Of a DNA stretch of 64,000 nucleotides, positions 4,812 to 50,435 are shown in pieces. The position numbers were made by a program, and so were the translations under genes. Origin of the DNA: an uncultured bacterium (GTDB taxonomy: Bacteria > Bacillota > Clostridia > Oscillospirales > Ruminococcaceae). Under the pieces are notes generated by a model. That model saw only the letters and a program-made list of their open reading frames with translations. It was not told where the DNA came from and ran no database searches. How positions within the stretch are numbered: the stretch's first letter is position 1; the number at the start of each line of letters is the position of its first letter. The stretch spans positions 28,168 through 92,167 of the forward strand of contig CAJMLV010000004.1 of NCBI GenBank assembly GCA_905214345.1, given 5' to 3'.

Positions 4812-5489
4812 ATGCCGCACATTCTGATCATTGAAGATGATACCGACATCAACAACGCCGTGGCCGAATACCTCACGGCCCGCGGATGCCGCTGTACCCA
4901 GGCGTTTTCCGGCACCGAAGGCCGCTTGTACTGGAAGCAGGGCGGGGCAGACCTGATCATTGCAGACCTGATGCTTCCCGGTCTGACCGGGCAGCAGCTT
5001 CTGGCGGGCATCCGGGGCGAAGACCACAGCAGCGTGCCGGTCATTGTACTGTCCGCCCGTACTGCCTTGCAGGACAAAGTGGAACTGCTGGAACTGGGGG
5101 CCGATGACTATCTGACCAAGCCCTTCTCCTTGCAGGAACTCTGGCTGCGGGTGGGGGTGCAGCTTCGCCATGCGGGGGCTGCCGCGGCACAGCCTTCCCA
5201 TATACAATATAAGGACTGGTCCATCGACCCCGAGACCCGTACCCTGACGGTGAAGGGGGGGCCGGTAGCCCTGACCCTGCACGAATACGAGATCGTGGCC
5301 CTGCTGGCGGCCCGCCCCAAAAAGGTGTTTACCCGGCAGGAAATTTACGAATCCGTCTGGCAGGAACAGGCTTTTGTGGAGGACAAGACCATCAACGTGC
5401 ACATCTCCAACATCCGCGCCAAGCTGCGCCCAACCGGTACCGATGACTATATCAAAACGGTGTGGGGCATAGGGTTCCGGCTGGAATGA
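4812..5489 (+). CDS. OmpR-family response regulator (peptide-antibiotic resistance type)
   Basis: Receiver domain (IIEDD...DLMLP...KPF) plus winged-helix C-terminus. Confidence 0.85.
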   Translation: MPHILIIEDDTDINNAVAEYLTARGCRCTQAFSGTEGRLYWKQGGADLIIADLMLPGLTGQQLLAGIRGEDHSSVPVIVLSARTALQDKVELLELGADDYLTKPFSLQELWLRVGVQLRHAGAAAAQPSHIQYKDWSIDPETRTLTVKGGPVALTLHEYEIVALLAARPKKVFTRQEIYESVWQEQAFVEDKTINVHISNIRAKLRPTGTDDYIKTVWGIGFRLE

Positions 5490-5584
5490 TACGGGCAATC
5501 TTTATTCTTTCTTTATATTTCCTTTGCGATTGTTTGGTCTTTGCCCGGTAGAATAAAGCCATACCAAACAAAGGAGAGGATCAG

Positions 5585-6499
5585 ATGCAAACCGCCGTGC
5601 GAACCCTGGGCCTGTGCAAGTCCTACCGCGGCAAAGCCGCCGTGGATCATCTGGATATGCAGGTGCCGCAGGGCGAAATCTATGGTTTTATCGGTGCCAA
5701 TGGCGCCGGCAAATCCACCACCTTCAAACTGCTGGCAGGGCTGGCCAAACCCACTGCCGGGCAGATCGAAATTTTCGGCCAGCCTTCGGAACAGGGAACC
5801 TTCAGTCGCCGGGTGGGCATCCTCATTGAGGATGCCGGCCTGTACGGGTCACTGTCCGCCAGGGATAACTGCCTGCTGAAAGCCAAACTTCTGGGGCTGG
5901 ACGATGAAAAATCCGCCGTGGACCGGGTGCTGGCCCAGGTAGGCCTGGAAAAGATGGGCAAAAAGGCAGCCAAACGGTTTTCCATGGGGCAGCGCCGTCG
6001 TCTGGGGCTGGCGCTGGCCCTGCTGGGCGATCCGGACCTGCTGTTGTTGGATGAACCTTCCAACGGTCTGGACCCGGAAGGTATCCGGGACGTGCGGCTT
6101 CTGTTGCAGCAGCTGCAGGCCGAACGGGGTGTGACAGTTCTGGTCAGCAGCCACATTCTGGGCGAGCTGGAAAAATTCGCCACCTGTTACGGTATCATTC
6201 GGGACGGCCGCATGGTACAGCAGATCACGGCGGAGGCACTGTCCGCCCAATGCCGGGATTACATTGCCCTGCAGACCCCGGACCCTCACCGTGCGGCGGC
6301 TCTGCTGGAAGAAAAACTGCACCTGCACGACTATACCGTGCGCCCGGAAGGGGAGCTGCGCATCTATGACGCCGCCGACCCCGCCCGGATCAACGCCGCC
6401 TTGCTGGAAGGCGGCGCGGCGGTGCAGTCCATCGGTATCCACCGTCAGGAACTGGAAGATTACTTTTTGCAGATGATGGGGGTGGAAGATCATGTTTGA
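5585..6499 (+). CDS. ABC transporter ATP-binding protein (BcrA / lantibiotic-immunity like)
   Basis: Walker A GANGAGKST, LSGGQ-like signature and Walker B LLLLDEP motifs. Confidence 0.85.
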   Translation: MQTAVRTLGLCKSYRGKAAVDHLDMQVPQGEIYGFIGANGAGKSTTFKLLAGLAKPTAGQIEIFGQPSEQGTFSRRVGILIEDAGLYGSLSARDNCLLKAKLLGLDDEKSAVDRVLAQVGLEKMGKKAAKRFSMGQRRRLGLALALLGDPDLLLLDEPSNGLDPEGIRDVRLLLQQLQAERGVTVLVSSHILGELEKFATCYGIIRDGRMVQQITAEALSAQCRDYIALQTPDPHRAAALLEEKLHLHDYTVRPEGELRIYDAADPARINAALLEGGAAVQSIGIHRQELEDYFLQMMGVEDHV

Positions 6500-45101: not shown

Positions 45102-45302
45102 ATGCCCGCCAAACGTCGACCGGAAATTGATATCTCCCTGGAAGGGGTAGGCCGCCGGGAAACTCGATCTTCAACCATCGACATTCCGCTGTCCTCGCCC
45201 CGCGGGTCGGGCGGTATTCTGGACCCCAAACTGGAGGATATGGTCAACCGTCATCATCAGGAAATCAAGGAACTGCACCGCCGCGCGCGGCAGGGGAGGT
45301 AA
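45102..45302 (+). CDS. Small basic hypothetical protein (66 aa) between fumarase subunit genes
   Basis: RBS GAGGAAG. Third-position GC of about 68% is typical of coding DNA here. No recognisable family. Confidence 0.35.
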   Translation: MPAKRRPEIDISLEGVGRRETRSSTIDIPLSSPRGSGGILDPKLEDMVNRHHQEIKELHRRARQGR

Positions 45303-45907: not shown

Positions 45908-45991
45908 AGCGGATATGGCGGAACTGGCAGACGCGCTGGTTTTAGGGTCCAGTGTCCATGACGTGCAGGTTCGATTCCTGTTATCCGCACC
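45908..45991 (+). tRNA. tRNA-Leu (anticodon UAG)
   Basis: 84 nt with a long variable arm and GGTTCGATTCC T-loop. Anticodon loop TTTAGGG. Encoded CCA. Confidence 0.85.
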
Positions 45992-46031
45992 AATCGCCGC
46001 AGGCAAGTATCCGCCTGCGGCGATTTTTTTG
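45992..46031 (+). terminator. tRNA-Leu terminator
   Basis: ATCGCCGCAGGC-aagtatc-GCCTGCGGCGAT followed by TTTTTTT. Confidence 0.85.
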
Positions 46032-46279
46032 CTCGCTTCATCGGCGGACAATGCCCGTTTTTTCTGTATCGGCCAACAAGCGGAATGTTGCTCATGATTT
46101 TCTAATGATCAGCAAAAAACGTTTCTTTTCTGCCTGCCGATCGCTCTTCTCTTTTCGGAGCGTTTCTGAAAAGAAGGAGGGCGCTTTTTGTTTGTGAGAA
46201 GGGGAAAGGCAAAATGATGAAACCCTCGTGCGGCATCGCTCTGCCAGCGTCGGTATTTTGCCAAGTGGGAAAGTTAGCC

Positions 46280-46309
46280 TTGACTACTGTCCGATGAAAT
46301 CACTATAAT
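46280..46309 (+). promoter_or_regulatory. perR sigma-70 promoter
   Basis: TTGACT, 18-nt spacer, TATAAT. Confidence 0.6.
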
Positions 46310-46313
46310 GATT

Positions 46314-46328
46314 TTAGAATGATTCTAA
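46314..46328. promoter_or_regulatory. Per box (PerR/Fur-type 7-1-7 operator)
   Basis: Perfect palindrome TTAGAATGATTCTAA, 5 nt downstream of the -10. Confidence 0.7.
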
Positions 46329-46347
46329 AAATGGTGCTGATGAGAAA

Positions 46348-46725
46348 ATGACCAAATACGCAAAAAAGATATGGGAAATCGTGGAATCATCCTACAGTCA
46401 TATGACAGCGGAGCAGATTTTTGAGGAGCTGCGCAAGACATACCCCAAGGTGGTGCTGGCTACGGTGTACAACAACCTGAACCGCCTGTGGGAGGAGGAT
46501 AAGATCCGCAAAATATCGGTGGAGGGGATGCCCGACCGATACGACCGGACCCGGCGGCACGACCATCTGGTATGCAAAAAGTGCGGCAGATTGCTGGATG
46601 TGGACCTGGGCGACCTGACGGCCCAGCTGACGGGGAAAGCAGGCGTTCCCATCCTGTCCTATGACCTGAAACTGTTGTATGTGTGCGAGGAATGCAGAAA
46701 ACAATCCCAACAGAAAGGAATGTGA
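46348..46725 (+). CDS. perR: Fur family peroxide-responsive repressor (PerR-like)
   Basis: 125 aa Fur fold with two CxxC pairs (CKKCG ... CEEC). Confidence 0.8.
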
Positions 46726-48782
46726 TGAATCTGAAACATCTGCCCTTATCGGTTCGCGTCCCCATTGAGGAAAATAACCCCAGCATTGTCCGTTGGGAAG
46801 AAAAGTGCATCCGGTGCGGCCTTTGCAAAGAAGTCTGTACCAATCTCATGGGGGTGCACGGCACCTATACCCTGGAAGAAACCGGCGGCAAGGCGGTCTG
46901 TATCTACTGCGGCCAGTGCGCCAATGTCTGCCCTGTGGACAGCATCACCGAGCGGGACGAATGTCCCCAGGTACGGCAGGCGGTGGCCGACCCGGATAAG
47001 GTGGTGGTCGTCAGTACTTCGCCCTCGGTGCGTGCGGCCCTGGGGGAAGAGTTCGGCATGGAACCCGGCGCGTTTGTGGAGGGCAAAATGGTGGCATTGC
47101 TCCGTGCCCTGGGTGCGGATTATGTGCTGGACACCAATTTTGCCGCCGACCTGACCATCGTGGAGGAAGCCAGCGAGCTCATCCGCCGCATCAAGGAACA
47201 GGACAAGCCCTTGCCGCAATTCACCAGCTGCTGCCCCGGCTGGGTGCACTTTGCGGAGATCTACGCCCCGGAACTGCTGCCTCATCTTTCCACTGCAAAA
47301 AGTCCCATCGGTATGCAGGGCCCAACGGTCAAAACCTACTTTGCCAAACAGATGGGCATTGACCCCGAAAAGATCGTTCATGTGGCCCTCACACCATGTA
47401 CTGCCAAAAAGTTTGAGATCCGGCGGGAGGAAATGCACGCCGCTGGTGACTATCACGGAGTGGCGGGCATGCGGGACACCGACCAGGTCATCACCACCCG
47501 GGAACTGGCCCGGTGGGCCAAGGAAGCGGGCGTTGACTGGAACACTCTGGAAGATTCGGCCTACGATTCCCTCATGGGCAAGGCGTCCGGCGCCGGTGTC
47601 ATCTTCGGCAACACCGGCGGCGTGATGGAAGCTGCTCTGCGCACCGCATACTCTTACCTGACCGGGCGGGAAGCGCCGGAAGCGTTGCTGCAGCTGAACC
47701 CCGTCCGCGGTTATGAAGGCGTGCGGGAAGCGGCGGTAGACATCAACGGACTGACTTTGCAGGTGGCGGTGGTGTACGGCACCGCCAACGCCCGGACTTT
47801 CCTTGCCCGGATGAAAGAAACCGGCAAGCAGTACCACTTTGTGGAAGTGATGGCGTGCCCCGGCGGCTGCATTGGCGGCGGGGGACAGCCCAAAGATCCC
47901 ATGAAGGATGCCGACGAAGTCCGCAAGAGCCGCATTGCGGCGCTCTACCGCAGGGACGAAGGAATGACCCTGCGTACCAGCCACGAAAACCCCGAAATCA
48001 AGGCAGTGTACGAAGCGTTCTACGGTCAGCCTCTCAGTGAGATGGCGGAGAAAATGCTCCACACCACCTATCAGGATTGCAGCAACATCATACAGAGAAA
48101 GGATGACAAAACAATGAGCAAATGGAAATGCAAGATCTGCGGTTATATCTATGAGGGCGAGACCCTGCCCGAAAACTTCACCTGCCCCATCTGCCGGCAG
48201 CCTGCTTCCGCTTTTGAGAAGATCGAGGAAGCGCCTGTTCAGGGCAGCGGCAAATATGCCGGTACCCAGACCGAAAAGAATCTGCAGGCCGCTTTTGCCG
48301 GGGAGTCCCAGGCACGCAACAAGTACACCTATTTTTCCGATGTGGCAAAACGCGAAGGCTATGAGCAGATCGCGGCCCTCTTCCTGCAGACGGCGGAAAA
48401 CGAAAAGGCCCATGCAAGACTCTGGTTTGAGGAACTGAACGGCGTGGGTGACACGGCCAAGAACCTGCTGCATGCCGCAGAGGGGGAAAACTACGAGTGG
48501 ACCGACATGTACGACGGTTTTGCCAAGACTGCCGAGGAAGAAGGCTTCCCGGAACTGGCGGCCAAGTTCCGTCTGGTGGCTGCTATCGAAAAGCGTCACG
48601 AGGAGCGTTACCGTGCCCTGCTGCGCAATGTGGAGACCGCGCAGGTCTTTGAAAAGAGCGAAGTCAAGGTGTGGGAATGCCGCAACTGCGGCCACATCGT
48701 GGCGGGCACCGCCGCTCCCGAAGTGTGCCCCACCTGCAATTACAGCAAGAGCTTCTTTGAAATCTCCAGCGACAATTATTAA
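46725..48782 (+). CDS. [FeFe]-hydrogenase fused to C-terminal rubredoxin and rubrerythrin domains
   Basis: Two N-terminal 4Fe-4S motifs. H-cluster motifs [15 protein letters not shown] and [15 protein letters not shown] rubredoxin domain (CKICGY...CPICRQP). A ferritin-like diiron rubrerythrin with a C-terminal CRNCGH...CPTCNY. The ATG overlaps the perR stop (TGATG). Confidence 0.85.
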
Positions 48783-48821
48783 GGATAGGGCAGGCCATGG
48801 CCTGAAAACCTCCGTATAACA

Positions 48822-48871
48822 AGCCGAGAGGCGGCAGACTTTGCGTCTGCCGCCTCTCGGCTGTTGTTTTT
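48822..48871. terminator. Bidirectional terminator
   Basis: Perfect 18-bp stem AGCCGAGAGGCGGCAGAC-tttgc-GTCTGCCGCCTCTCGGCT followed by a T-run. Confidence 0.85.
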
Positions 48872-48883
48872 GAATCGGGTTGC

Positions 48884-50236
48884 TTATTCCGGCAATAACC
48901 GGGTACGGCGGCAGAAATAATATACCGCACCAACAATATCGGCCAGAGCCCAGCCGATGGGTACCGAAATCCAGATGCCCCACACGCCCACCACGGGAGC
49001 GAGGGCATAGGCCAGGGCCACGCGGGTGCCCAGAGAACAGACCGTCAGCACCACCGACATGGCGGGACGGCGCACCGCACGGTAGAACCCGTACAGCAGG
49101 AACAGGATGCCGATGCCGCAGTAGCAGGCACCTTCGATCCAGAGATACTGCACACCAACGGCGGTGATTTCGGCCACGGCTGGGTCGGTGGGGTCCACGA
49201 AAATCCCCATCAGCGGCGCAGCAAACAGGCAGACTACCGCACTCACCGCCAGGCAGAACACCACGGCGCAGATCACCGCACTGCGGGTGCCCTTGCGGAT
49301 GCGCTCTTTGCTGTGGGCACCGTAGTTCTGGGCGATGAAGGTAGAAAAAGCATTGCCGAAATCCTGCACCGGCATATAAGCGAAAGAGTCGATCTTGACG
49401 GCAGCGGCAAAGGCGGCCATGACCACTTCGCCAAAGCTGTTCACCAGCCCCTGCACCATCAGAATGCCGAAATTCATGATGCTCTGCTGAATGCAGGTCA
49501 GCAGGGAAAAGGACACGATCTCGCTCAGCACCCGGCGGTCCCAGCGGCAATCGGCCTTGCCGGGCGCCAGAGTGGGCAGACAGAGCAGGGTATACACCGC
49601 AATGCCGATGCCCGAAACATACTGGGCAATGACAGTGGCAACGGCGGCACCGGCCACTCCCCAATGGAACAACAGCACAAAGGCCAGGTCCAGGACGATG
49701 TTCAGTACCGCCGAGACACCCAGAAACACCAGCGGCACCATGGAGTTGCCCACAGCCCGCAGCAGTGCCGCAAAGTAGTTGTACAAGAACACCGCCGGAA
49801 TACCGAAGAAGATGCACCACAGATAGGTGCGCATCAGCGGAACGATATTTTCGGGTACCTGCAGCAGCATCAGAATGGGGTCCAGCAGGGCAAACACTGC
49901 CAGATTCAGCACCACGGCCACCGCGGCGATAAATACGAAGGAATGGAAGATTCCGCTTTTCAGCCCGGCCTGGTCCCCCTCGCCCCAGCGGATGGAGAAC
50001 AGGGCGCCGCTGCCCATGCACAAGCCCAGCAGAATGGAGGTGAGGAATGTCATCAGGGTATATGCAGAACCCACCGCTGCCAGCGTGTCTGCACCCAGAA
50101 AGCGCCCCACGATGATGGTATCCGCCACATTGTACAGCTGCTGGAGCAGATTTCCTGCCATCATGGGCAGGGCAAAAAGAATCAGGCTTTTGGTGATGGG
50201 GCCTGTTGTCAGGGTACCTGTATGTGCGCTTGCCAT
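48884..50236 (-). CDS. MATE family efflux transporter
   Basis: 12 TM helices with the MATE N-terminal motif (LALPMMAGNLLQQLYNVADTIIVGR). ATG at 50236 with RBS AGGAGG. The ORF-track N-terminal extension runs through a tRNA and is rejected. Confidence 0.85.
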   Translation of the reverse strand: MASAHTGTLTTGPITKSLILFALPMMAGNLLQQLYNVADTIIVGRFLGADTLAAVGSAYTLMTFLTSILLGLCMGSGALFSIRWGEGDQAGLKSGIFHSFVFIAAVAVVLNLAVFALLDPILMLLQVPENIVPLMRTYLWCIFFGIPAVFLYNYFAALLRAVGNSMVPLVFLGVSAVLNIVLDLAFVLLFHWGVAGAAVATVIAQYVSGIGIAVYTLLCLPTLAPGKADCRWDRRVLSEIVSFSLLTCIQQSIMNFGILMVQGLVNSFGEVVMAAFAAAVKIDSFAYMPVQDFGNAFSTFIAQNYGAHSKERIRKGTRSAVICAVVFCLAVSAVVCLFAAPLMGIFVDPTDPAVAEITAVGVQYLWIEGACYCGIGILFLLYGFYRAVRRPAMSVVLTVCSLGTRVALAYALAPVVGVWGIWISVPIGWALADIVGAVYYFCRRTRLLPE

Positions 50237-50291
50237 GAAAAACCTCCTGGCGGGGCATTGCCCCGGAATCTGCAAGGATGACTGCAGTACC

Positions 50292-50326
50292 GCAAAAACA
50301 AAAGCCCCGGCACAGGGCCGGGGCTT
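50292..50326 (-). terminator. Terminator of minus-strand tRNA-Leu
   Basis: GCCCCGGC-cctgt-GCCGGGGC followed by TTTTGTTTTT on the minus strand. Confidence 0.75.
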
Positions 50327-50351
50327 TCTGACGGGCTGAGCCCGCAAAATT

Positions 50352-50435
50352 TGGTGCGGAAGATGGGACTTGAACCCACACGTCATGGACACACGCACCT
50401 CAAACGTGCCTGTCTGCCGATTCCAGCACTTCCGC
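50352..50435 (-). tRNA. tRNA-Leu (anticodon GAG)
   Basis: 84 nt with a long variable arm and GGTTCAAGTCC T-loop. Anticodon loop TTGAGGT. Encoded CCA. Confidence 0.85.

Follow-up and report, generated by a model that had tools for sequence, protein, structure and literature searches.

A perR-hydR operon at a variable tRNA-Leu site in Gemmiger, predicted to encode a PerR-controlled, H2-dependent peroxidase

The fusion of an [FeFe] hydrogenase with rubrerythrin in a single chain has been studied in CperHydR of Clostridium perfringens. This protein has been purified and all of its predicted metal centres have been demonstrated (Taylor et al., J Am Chem Soc 2025; PMC11926857). It is an H2-dependent H2O2 reductase with a complete uptake bias, giving no H2-evolution current. 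The enzyme has been put forward as a new pathway of H2O2 mitigation in a pathogen, with its regulation and relevance beyond C. perfringens left open (PMC11926857). A 13-residue loop missing from its rubrerythrin part was used to argue for a domain-swapped homodimer (PMC11926857). A gene for a protein of this architecture, here called hydR, lies directly behind perR, the gene of a Fur-family regulator, in a 64,000-nucleotide stretch of DNA (contig CAJMLV010000004.1 of assembly GCA_905214345.1, positions 28,168 to 92,167; hereafter the window). The source of the window is a species of Gemmiger, a strictly anaerobic gut bacterium of the Oscillospirales. It is likely that perR and hydR form a self-contained two-gene operon for a PerR-controlled, H2-dependent peroxidase, which has been inserted in a conserved chromosomal frame.

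Rubrerythrin-type peroxidases have been linked to PerR in other anaerobes. For the C. difficile cluster rbr1-perR-rbo-CD0828 (CD630_08280), repression by PerR and induction by H2O2 have been shown experimentally (PMC8546684). Desulfovibrio and Geobacter carry perR-rbr-rdl and perR-rbr-roo operons (PMC545781). An initial annotation of the window, prepared without database searches, described perR, hydR and a convergent MATE exporter gene as one block, bracketed by two tRNA-Leu genes and possibly mobile. It also held that hydrogenase-rubrerythrin fusions had not been characterised biochemically; this is outdated, as CperHydR was characterised in 2025 (PMC11926857).

The perR-hydR operon

HydR is a fusion of 685 residues. 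Pfam matches run without a gap in the domain order over residues 21-679: two Fer4 motifs, the H-cluster domain, an Fe_hyd_SSU segment, a rubredoxin, the rubrerythrin bundle and a second rubredoxin (Table 1). The contiguous hydrogenase (HydA), rubredoxin (Rd) and rubrerythrin (Rbr) domains that had been read from the 46725-48782 product are confirmed by these profiles. Curated cut-offs are passed both for group A [FeFe] hydrogenases (TIGR02512, 476.9 bits against 405.95) and for the rubrerythrin equivalog (NF045767, 262.2 bits against 200). The H-cluster motifs have been defined as TSCCPxW (L1), (M/T)PCxxKxxE (L2) and ExMACxxGCxxGGGQP (L3), with TPCTAKKFE as an uptake-type L2 (PMC11926857). All three are present in the translation; L1 reads TSCCPGW and L2 reads TPCTAKKFE. 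The hydrogenase half aligns with solved hydrogenase structures. Aligned with Desulfovibrio vulgaris rubrerythrin (1B71/1RYT), the Rbr domain keeps all glutamate and histidine ligands of the di-iron site and the four cysteines, and is short by exactly 13 residues between helices 2 and 3.

The fusion is not confined to one assembly. An identical open reading frame (ORF) of 685 aa, in the same synteny, is found in at least four independent assemblies (L081-L084; L-numbers denote comparison loci or contigs from other genomes). Among the best 120 of 8,000 database matches, query coverage is 94-100% for nearly all (one has 91% and one 71%), identity is 63-100%, and both domain sets are present. The product of hydR is listed here as a predicted H2-dependent H2O2 reductase, by analogy with CperHydR. 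The initial annotation had proposed that oxidation of H2 drives reduction of H2O2, and this activity has been shown experimentally in that homologue of the same architecture (PMC11926857).

The regulator resembles PerR in the residues that matter most for its assignment. Among solved structures, the 125-aa protein is matched best by Bacillus subtilis PerR (BsPerR; 2FE3). The putative regulatory ligands H18, D66, H71, H73 and D84 correspond to BsPerR H37, D85, H91, H93 and D104, and N42 of the recognition helix corresponds to BsPerR N61. Two CxxC pairs (C76, C79, C113 and C116) correspond to the structural zinc site of BsPerR (C96, C99, C136 and C139). The zinc residues, the regulatory residues and N42 are all invariant across 16 perR orthologues. 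At the discriminating positions (BsPerR N61, D85 and D104), Fur of Campylobacter jejuni has Arg, Glu and Glu. The PerR ligand set, with Asp instead of Glu at position 104, distinguishes PerR from Fur, and the Cys4 zinc site has likewise been defined (PMC4866751). The two best NCBIfam matches of the protein are the PerR equivalogs NF047406 and NF052545.

A putative PerR-type operator, TTAGAATGATTCTAA, lies at the perR promoter. It is unique within the window; even for the degenerate form TTANAATNATTNTAA, with at most one mismatch allowed, the chance expectation is 0.02 in the window. No other PerR box was found in the window, including upstream of the MATE gene, even when three mismatches or degenerate half-sites were allowed. 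The palindrome TTAGAAT-N-ATTCTAA precedes most perR orthologues of at least 48% identity: 14 of 16 have it exactly or with a single mismatch, and L071 departs at two positions. It stands 28-43 nt before the start codon in these orthologues, and 62-102 nt before it at four loci. The only position that varies freely is the central base, which may be G, C, T or A. Thirteen of the 15 positions match the B. subtilis PerR box consensus TTATAATNATTATAA, as quoted in PMC545781. For a genome-wide regulon scan the motif takes the form TTAGAATNATTCTAA.

Comparison of other genomes gives the box its weight. In 1.86 Mb of comparison DNA, all boxes with at most one mismatch are located at perR promoters, save one copy. 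When nine unrelated genomic contexts are compared, upstream homology is limited to about 70 nt, comprising both promoter hexamers (-35 and -10) and the box; TTGAC of the -35 hexamer is kept in all nine, a TATAAT-like -10 hexamer in most, and the box begins 4-5 nt past the -10 hexamer in eight. The conserved box at perR promoters is strong comparative evidence for autoregulation. The PerR-like repressor with its own Per box that had been annotated is thus well supported, by the PerR residue signature and by a phylogenetically conserved operator.

The single copy elsewhere is a one-mismatch box at L028:5420-5434, about 580 nt before a rubrerythrin gene. The contig, assigned to an Akkermansia sp. 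bin, contains no Fur match of at least 100 aa; it may be mis-binned, or its regulator may have diverged.

The stop codon of perR (TGA, 46723-46725) shares its A with the hydR ATG at 46725 (TGATG). An in-frame GTG at 46722 directly precedes this ATG; the orthologues L001 and L086 have AGG in its place and must start at GTG. The start of hydR is therefore ambiguous, giving a product of 685 or 686 aa and an overlap of 1 or 4 nt. The overlap of 1 nt given in the initial annotation is present and the coupling drawn from it is supported, with the proviso that the overlap may be 4 nt. Overlap of stop and start is conserved in relatives as TGATG, GTGA or ATGA, even where the regulator is only 31% identical, which supports perR and hydR as one translationally coupled operon. 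In other genomes, this regulator gene likewise precedes stand-alone rubrerythrin genes and rubredoxin-glutamate synthase (GltS)-rubrerythrin genes.

These features suggest how the operon would work. PerR would be a short Fur-family repressor with a peroxide-sensing Fe/Mn site like that of BsPerR. Its dimer would bind TTAGAAT-N-ATTCTAA, overlapping the transcription start of its own gene, and so keep the operon silent. Once H2O2 had oxidised one of the histidine metal ligands (H18 or H71), PerR would leave the operator and both genes would be derepressed; the stop/start overlap would couple their translation. HydR would oxidise H2 at an H-cluster that its L2 motif (TPCTAKKFE) predicts to be uptake-biased. 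Electrons would pass through the two [4Fe-4S] clusters and the rubredoxin centres to the di-iron site of rubrerythrin, which would reduce H2O2 to water, probably in a domain-swapped homodimer.

Presence, absence and position in relatives

Besides Gemmiger, bins labelled Flavonifractor, Agathobaculum, Anaeromassilibacillus and Lachnospiraceae carry the system, which is found in fused and in split form. Two loci in bins labelled Bacilli are naturally split: L014:5607-7930 encodes a Fur-like protein, Rbr (192 aa) and HydA (460 aa), and L019:3953-6214 encodes a Fur-like protein, HydA (447 aa) and Rbr (180 aa). A further locus (L012:3634-6118) has a HydR-like fusion of 708 aa after a Fur-like gene with a classic Fur box, TGATAATGATTATCA, and not a PerR-type box. 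Such regulator genes also head rubrerythrin proteins of another make-up. At L055:6016-8121 a Fur-family gene, whose product is 33% identical, is followed by a 701-aa fusion of rubredoxin, glutamate synthase (FMN), rubredoxin and rubrerythrin; at L079:5995-8011 this rubredoxin-GltS-Rd-Rbr arrangement is split in two genes behind a 56%-identical perR orthologue with the box.

Within Gemmiger and its close relatives, perR-hydR varies in presence and in position. Empty sites are found in L090-L092 and in L172-L174, of which L174 is the G. formicilis isolate GCA_016900095.1. They have the frame fumAB, tRNA-Leu(UAG), MATE, tRNA-Leu(GAG) and trkAH. The three loci L090-L092 are 93-96% identical to the window in FumB, 89-90% in MATE and 90-93% in TrkA; between the tRNA gene and the MATE stop codon they have a single, different bidirectional hairpin, which serves both. 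The tRNA-Leu(UAG) gene after fumB is conserved in L089-L092, L172 and L174. An empty site, which the initial annotation had suggested looking for, does exist, but the tRNA genes are not left adjacent by it: both tRNA-Leu genes and MATE stay, and only perR-hydR varies. The variable unit is not the three-gene, tRNA-bracketed block but perR-hydR, a segment of about 2.9 kb (about 45993-48883). The different contexts of the cassette share homology only over a stretch that starts some 70 nt before perR and ends with the hydR stop codon. Presence/absence polymorphism beside a tRNA gene, as expected of a tRNA-targeting element, is seen for perR-hydR only.

Two other occupied loci are informative. In the sister lineage L089, perR-hydR is at the same site and HydR is 95% identical; upstream non-coding DNA is 74-89% identical to that of the window. 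L089 has an extra gene between hydR and MATE, encoding a 179-aa protein with a Flavodoxin_5 domain (5324-5863), which is missing from the window. In G. formicilis GCA_016901715.1 (L170), perR-hydR is at a different locus, behind an unrelated MATE gene. Its identity to the window copy is 75% for PerR and 85.6% for HydR, with core proteins of the two species at 85-97%; it is no closer to the window copy than are copies labelled Flavonifractor or Anaeromassilibacillus. More distant relatives have another synteny after fumB, and no perR-hydR there. Linkage of Rbr and TrkA in L063 and L069 was considered as ancestral synteny and dropped; there are no tRNA genes, and unrelated ORFs intervene.

The interval is a real insertion hot spot. 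Besides the extra gene of L089, a G. formicilis-type contig (L175:1-5722) has phage genes (pRha, capsid-like and sigma-70-like) which reach the 3' end of tRNA-Leu(GAG) and replace MATE and fumarase; because they abut the tRNA in this way, tRNA-Leu(GAG) can be regarded as a prophage junction in some strains. The usual marks of a mobile element were also sought. The block contains perR, hydR and MATE only, with no integrase or recombinase, and its flanks are housekeeping genes. No meaningful flanking direct repeat of at least 14 nt, of the att type, is present at the block borders, and no conserved end sequences (terminal inverted repeats) were found among the cassettes compared. The two tRNA-Leu genes, inverted relative to each other and 73% complementary, encode different isoacceptors and do not represent att duplicates. 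Composition is not anomalous: GC content is unremarkable, and GC content at third codon positions (GC3) in perR (0.71) and hydR (0.72) falls within the 0.68-0.84 of neighbouring genes. The suggestion of an acquired or mobile unit thus stands in part. It agrees with the hot-spot interval, the presence/absence of perR-hydR and the other locus in G. formicilis, and finds no match in integrase genes, att repeats or compositional deviation.

By parsimony, perR-hydR was most likely gained in an ancestor of the window species and the L089 lineage. It may also be proposed, tentatively, that perR-hydR is a horizontally exchanged, self-regulated "plug-in" cassette. Such a cassette would begin with the promoter and operator, end at the hydR stop codon after about 2.5 kb and be free of mobility genes; it would spread among gut Oscillospirales and Lachnospirales and land repeatedly beside tRNA or MATE genes. 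The reverse history, with perR-hydR present here ancestrally and lost by deletion from G. formicilis and other relatives, is rather doubtful. The unremarkable composition and GC3, the lack of insertion scars or repeats in the sequences compared, and the site shared with L089 down to its non-coding DNA are all in keeping with it. Against it, there are at least three separate empty-site lineages (L090; L092; L091 with L172-L174) outside the pair formed by the window and L089. The distant relatives with their other synteny, and the G. formicilis copy, which is at another locus and no closer to the window copy than those of other labels, also argue for gain.

The regulator, the role of HydR and the MATE gene

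Several observations weigh against a PerR-controlled, H2-dependent peroxidase operon inserted at this site. The regulator scores below the cut-offs of both PerR equivalogs (70.9 against 200 for NF047406, and 68.4 against 180 for NF052545). It lacks the N-terminal helix of BsPerR; the alignment begins at residue 26 of BsPerR, and no upstream extension of the ORF is possible. The operator departs from the Bacillus PerR box at two symmetric positions. Neither the hydEFG maturase genes nor a source of H2 are present in the window. The likeness to CperHydR is one of architecture and motifs, and C. perfringens hydR is reported to be persistently expressed, not stress-induced (PMC11926857). Since GC3 is within the local range, composition lends no support to a recent gain, and loss in relatives is possible. 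Finally, peroxide control and H2:H2O2 activity in Gemmiger are predicted by comparison with other organisms.

The missing helix and the scores far under the cut-offs lead us to place the regulator in a distinct, short subfamily of PerR-type proteins; by these models it is not an equivalog of a characterised PerR. The orthologues are equally short, at about 117-130 aa where gene calls or start codons exist. A different ligand is then conceivable. The regulator might sense a metal (iron or manganese, like Fur or Mur) and tune an iron-rich enzyme to the supply. Curated thresholds assign it to the Fur family only, HydR requires about 18 Fe per monomer, and the HydR-like fusion in L012 follows a Fur-like gene with the classic Fur box. 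We nevertheless consider a metal sensor unlikely. The equivalents of BsPerR D85 and D104 are Asp, in contrast to Glu in the Fur sequences compared, and the equivalent of N61 is Asn, in contrast to Arg in C. jejuni Fur; the operator resembles that of PerR and not that of Fur; and rubrerythrin genes of several architectures are consistently found linked to this regulator. Repression of the Fur type under plentiful iron would, moreover, make little physiological sense for an iron-rich enzyme.

It is similarly improbable that the main role of HydR is other than removal of peroxide, such as O2 reduction with H2, recycling of H2, or shielding of the H-cluster by rubrerythrin. O2-reductase activity has been reported for some rubrerythrins. 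The authors of the CperHydR study allow for further functions, given its persistent co-expression with an H2-producing hydrogenase and possible H2 cycling (PMC11926857). The activity shown for CperHydR is nonetheless the H2-dependent reduction of H2O2, with complete uptake bias (PMC11926857), and hydR is here placed under a PerR-type regulator with predicted response to peroxide.

The MATE gene is convergent to hydR and lies behind a strong terminator, which is conserved in the sister locus L089. No PerR box is found upstream of it in the window or before MATE genes in any comparison locus, and it is retained between both tRNA-Leu genes in relatives without perR-hydR. Because of its orientation, the terminator, the missing box and its presence in relatives without the cassette, MATE is placed outside the module. 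It is a resident neighbour, and its membership, asserted in the initial annotation, is not demonstrable. MATE has a strong AGGAGG ribosome-binding site. The 64 nt between MATE and the tRNA-Leu(GAG) terminator (50237-50300, minus strand) contain no promoter-like site; MATE may be transcribed by read-through from the tRNA promoter (TTGCAT...TAGAAT, about 50500-50470).

MATE and tRNA genes are recurrent neighbours of such cassettes. MATE genes directly adjoin perR-hydR or perR-rbr in five other contexts (L003, L071, L079, L085 and L170); most are other paralogues, 27-33% identical to the window MATE, and the L079 copy is 67% identical. tRNA genes adjoin perR-hydR or perR-rbr cassettes within about 110-165 nt in four contexts: L002:8160 (Pro), L009:8277 (Leu-CAA), L012:3347-3495 (Gly and Cys) and L079:8166 (Ala). 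This suggests that tRNA-adjacent sites are favoured by such cassettes. Adjacency of both kinds looks higher than an expectation of 1-3% per neighbour, which is our own rough estimate. Together with the hot-spot nature of the interval (L175, L089), these neighbours speak for the whole tRNA-bracketed perR-hydR-MATE block as one acquired, mobile oxidative-stress module with MATE as a functional part. We regard this as quite improbable. Relatives without perR-hydR keep both tRNA genes and MATE, which are therefore resident; MATE is convergent, separated by its terminator and free of a PerR box; the adjoining MATE genes are mostly different paralogues; and the tRNA genes are inverted, different isoacceptors, with neither an integrase nor direct repeats. 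That the fusion is a sequencing or assembly artefact joining separate hydA and rbr genes can be dismissed, despite the naturally split versions in other taxa (rbr-hydA in L014 and hydA-rbr in L019), as the uninterrupted ORF recurs identically in the independent assemblies, nearly all of the best 120 of 8,000 matches are full-length fusions, and a rubredoxin linker joins the halves in frame.

The features of the interval are collected in Table 1. Two inverted tRNA-Leu genes with a terminator behind each had been annotated, and both are present, as seen with ARAGORN, Rfam and sites with a hairpin and T-run. The identities given to the three genes between them (a Fur-family perR, a 685-aa fusion and a convergent MATE) were all correct. 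In an Rfam scan of 44-52 kb of the window, the two tRNA genes alone are above threshold; sub-threshold matches to SorX and CsrC are terminator hairpins.

Table 1. Features of the interval between the two tRNA-Leu genes, in window positions
Feature	Position	Strand	Details
tRNA-Leu(UAG)	45909-45992	+	ARAGORN; Rfam tRNA 50.3 bits against gathering score 29; left edge of the variable interval
Terminator of tRNA-Leu(UAG)	45992-46032	+	13-bp stem and T-run; hairpin and T-run site at 45992-46025
perR-hydR promoter, sigma-70-type	46280-46309	+	TTGACT-18 nt-TATAAT; 11 of 12 consensus positions
Putative PerR-type operator TTAGAATGATTCTAA	46314-46328	.	Perfect 7-1-7 palindrome; starts 4 nt past the -10 hexamer
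perR	46348-46725	+	125 aa; Fur family, Pfam FUR 6e-20; first gene of the operon
hydR	46725-48782	+	685 aa; [FeFe]-hydrogenase-rubredoxin-rubrerythrin fusion; alternative start GTG 46722
hydR, F-cluster region	46785-46949	+	Two [4Fe-4S] motifs; matches to Fer4, Fer4_21 and Fer4_10
hydR, H-cluster domain and small-subunit-like segment	46998-48077	+	Fe_hyd_lg_C 2e-92; Fe_hyd_SSU 1e-21
hydR, linker rubredoxin	48114-48221	+	C469-x2-C472 ... C487-P-x-C490; first of two RUBY_RBDX stretches
hydR, rubrerythrin (di-iron four-helix bundle and C-terminal rubredoxin)	48276-48761	+	Rubrerythrin 3e-24; RUBY_RBDX at the C-terminus
Bidirectional terminator, hydR/MATE	48822-48862	.	Perfect 18-bp stem
MATE efflux transporter	48884-50236	-	450 aa; TIGR00797 193 bits against cut-off 147
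Terminator of tRNA-Leu(GAG)	50300-50328	-	Hairpin and T-run
tRNA-Leu(GAG)	50352-50435	-	ARAGORN; Rfam tRNA 46.2 bits against gathering score 29

The remainder of the window is core chromosome. The host was identified from PurA, malic enzyme and TrkA, which fall in 90%-identity clusters named Gemmiger sp. or Gemmiger formicilis. The core genes encode ABC, Opp and CDF transporters, the enzymes IMPDH, PNPase, PurA, malic enzyme, fumarase and amylase, and also ClpB, trigger factor, TrkAH, SpoIVB, IspDF and CdaA. Only housekeeping genes are found in the rest of the 64 kb, which has no hydEFG maturase genes, second hydrogenase or mobility genes. An ORF of 66 aa separates fumA from fumB (45102-45302); gene calls include it in all assemblies, G. 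formicilis among them, and Pfam gives no match for it.

Comparison with described systems

The enzyme class is already characterised, and the known enzymology is unchanged; the system is extended, not newly revealed. Modestly new are the predicted regulatory link between PerR and hydR, the breadth of the system in gut commensals in fused and split form, and the insertion/deletion polymorphism between species of one genus. The system is common among abundant commensals of the gut, and the locus offers a testable regulatory model, in which a conserved PerR-type repressor and its operator are directly coupled to hydR. If the tentative proposal of an exchanged plug-in cassette were true, strict anaerobes could spend abundant gut H2 as reductant for peroxide defence, and presence and location of the cassette at the strain level would help to set the oxygen tolerance of commensals such as Gemmiger; the recurrent MATE might then be a functional partner, for example in the export of oxidised metabolites. 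Close Gemmiger species which differ in presence or site of the cassette provide natural comparisons of an isogenic-like kind, with which to ask if available H2 buffers oxidative stress in the gut.

BsPerR (PDB 2FE3, 3F8N) is the closest described regulator. It shares with the window protein the Cys4 zinc site, the five regulatory ligands, the residue equivalent to N61 and the 7-1-7 form of the operator. It has 145 aa, whereas the window protein has 125 aa and is without the N-terminal helix; for the latter, peroxide sensing is a prediction only.

The C. difficile rbr1 locus and the perR-rbr operons of Desulfovibrio and Geobacter are alike in plan. In each, a Fur-family perR is co-transcribed with a rubrerythrin-type peroxidase gene, with a palindromic box at its own promoter and autoregulation, which for the window is predicted. 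The GltS-Rbr arrangement of L055 and L079 also parallels CD630_08280 in the C. difficile locus. In the window, by contrast, the peroxidase brings its own hydrogenase as electron donor, perR comes first and overlaps the enzyme gene, and the half-site is TTAGAAT where that of Bacillus is TTATAAT.

Among hydrogenases, CpII, the H2-uptake enzyme of Clostridium pasteurianum, is similar in being of the M2 type, with two F-clusters and an H-domain (PMC11926857). Its L2 motif is also of the uptake type with Thr and Ala, TPCTAKKYE against TPCTAKKFE in the window HydR (PMC11926857). CpII differs in having no rubredoxin/rubrerythrin extension and in being tied to the recycling of H2 from nitrogenase.

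The nearest relative in architecture is CperHydR. Both are single chains with two [4Fe-4S] clusters, an H-cluster, a rubredoxin, a di-iron rubrerythrin and a C-terminal rubredoxin; the motifs L1-L3 are present in both, with L2 identical. The 13-residue rubrerythrin loop is absent from both, and a homodimer is predicted for the window protein too. The hosts belong to different families, one a Clostridium and the other Gemmiger, a gut commensal of the Oscillospirales. The second difference is regulatory: in the window, hydR follows perR as second cistron of one operon with a conserved operator, and the CperHydR study mentions neither PerR nor an operon (PMC11926857).

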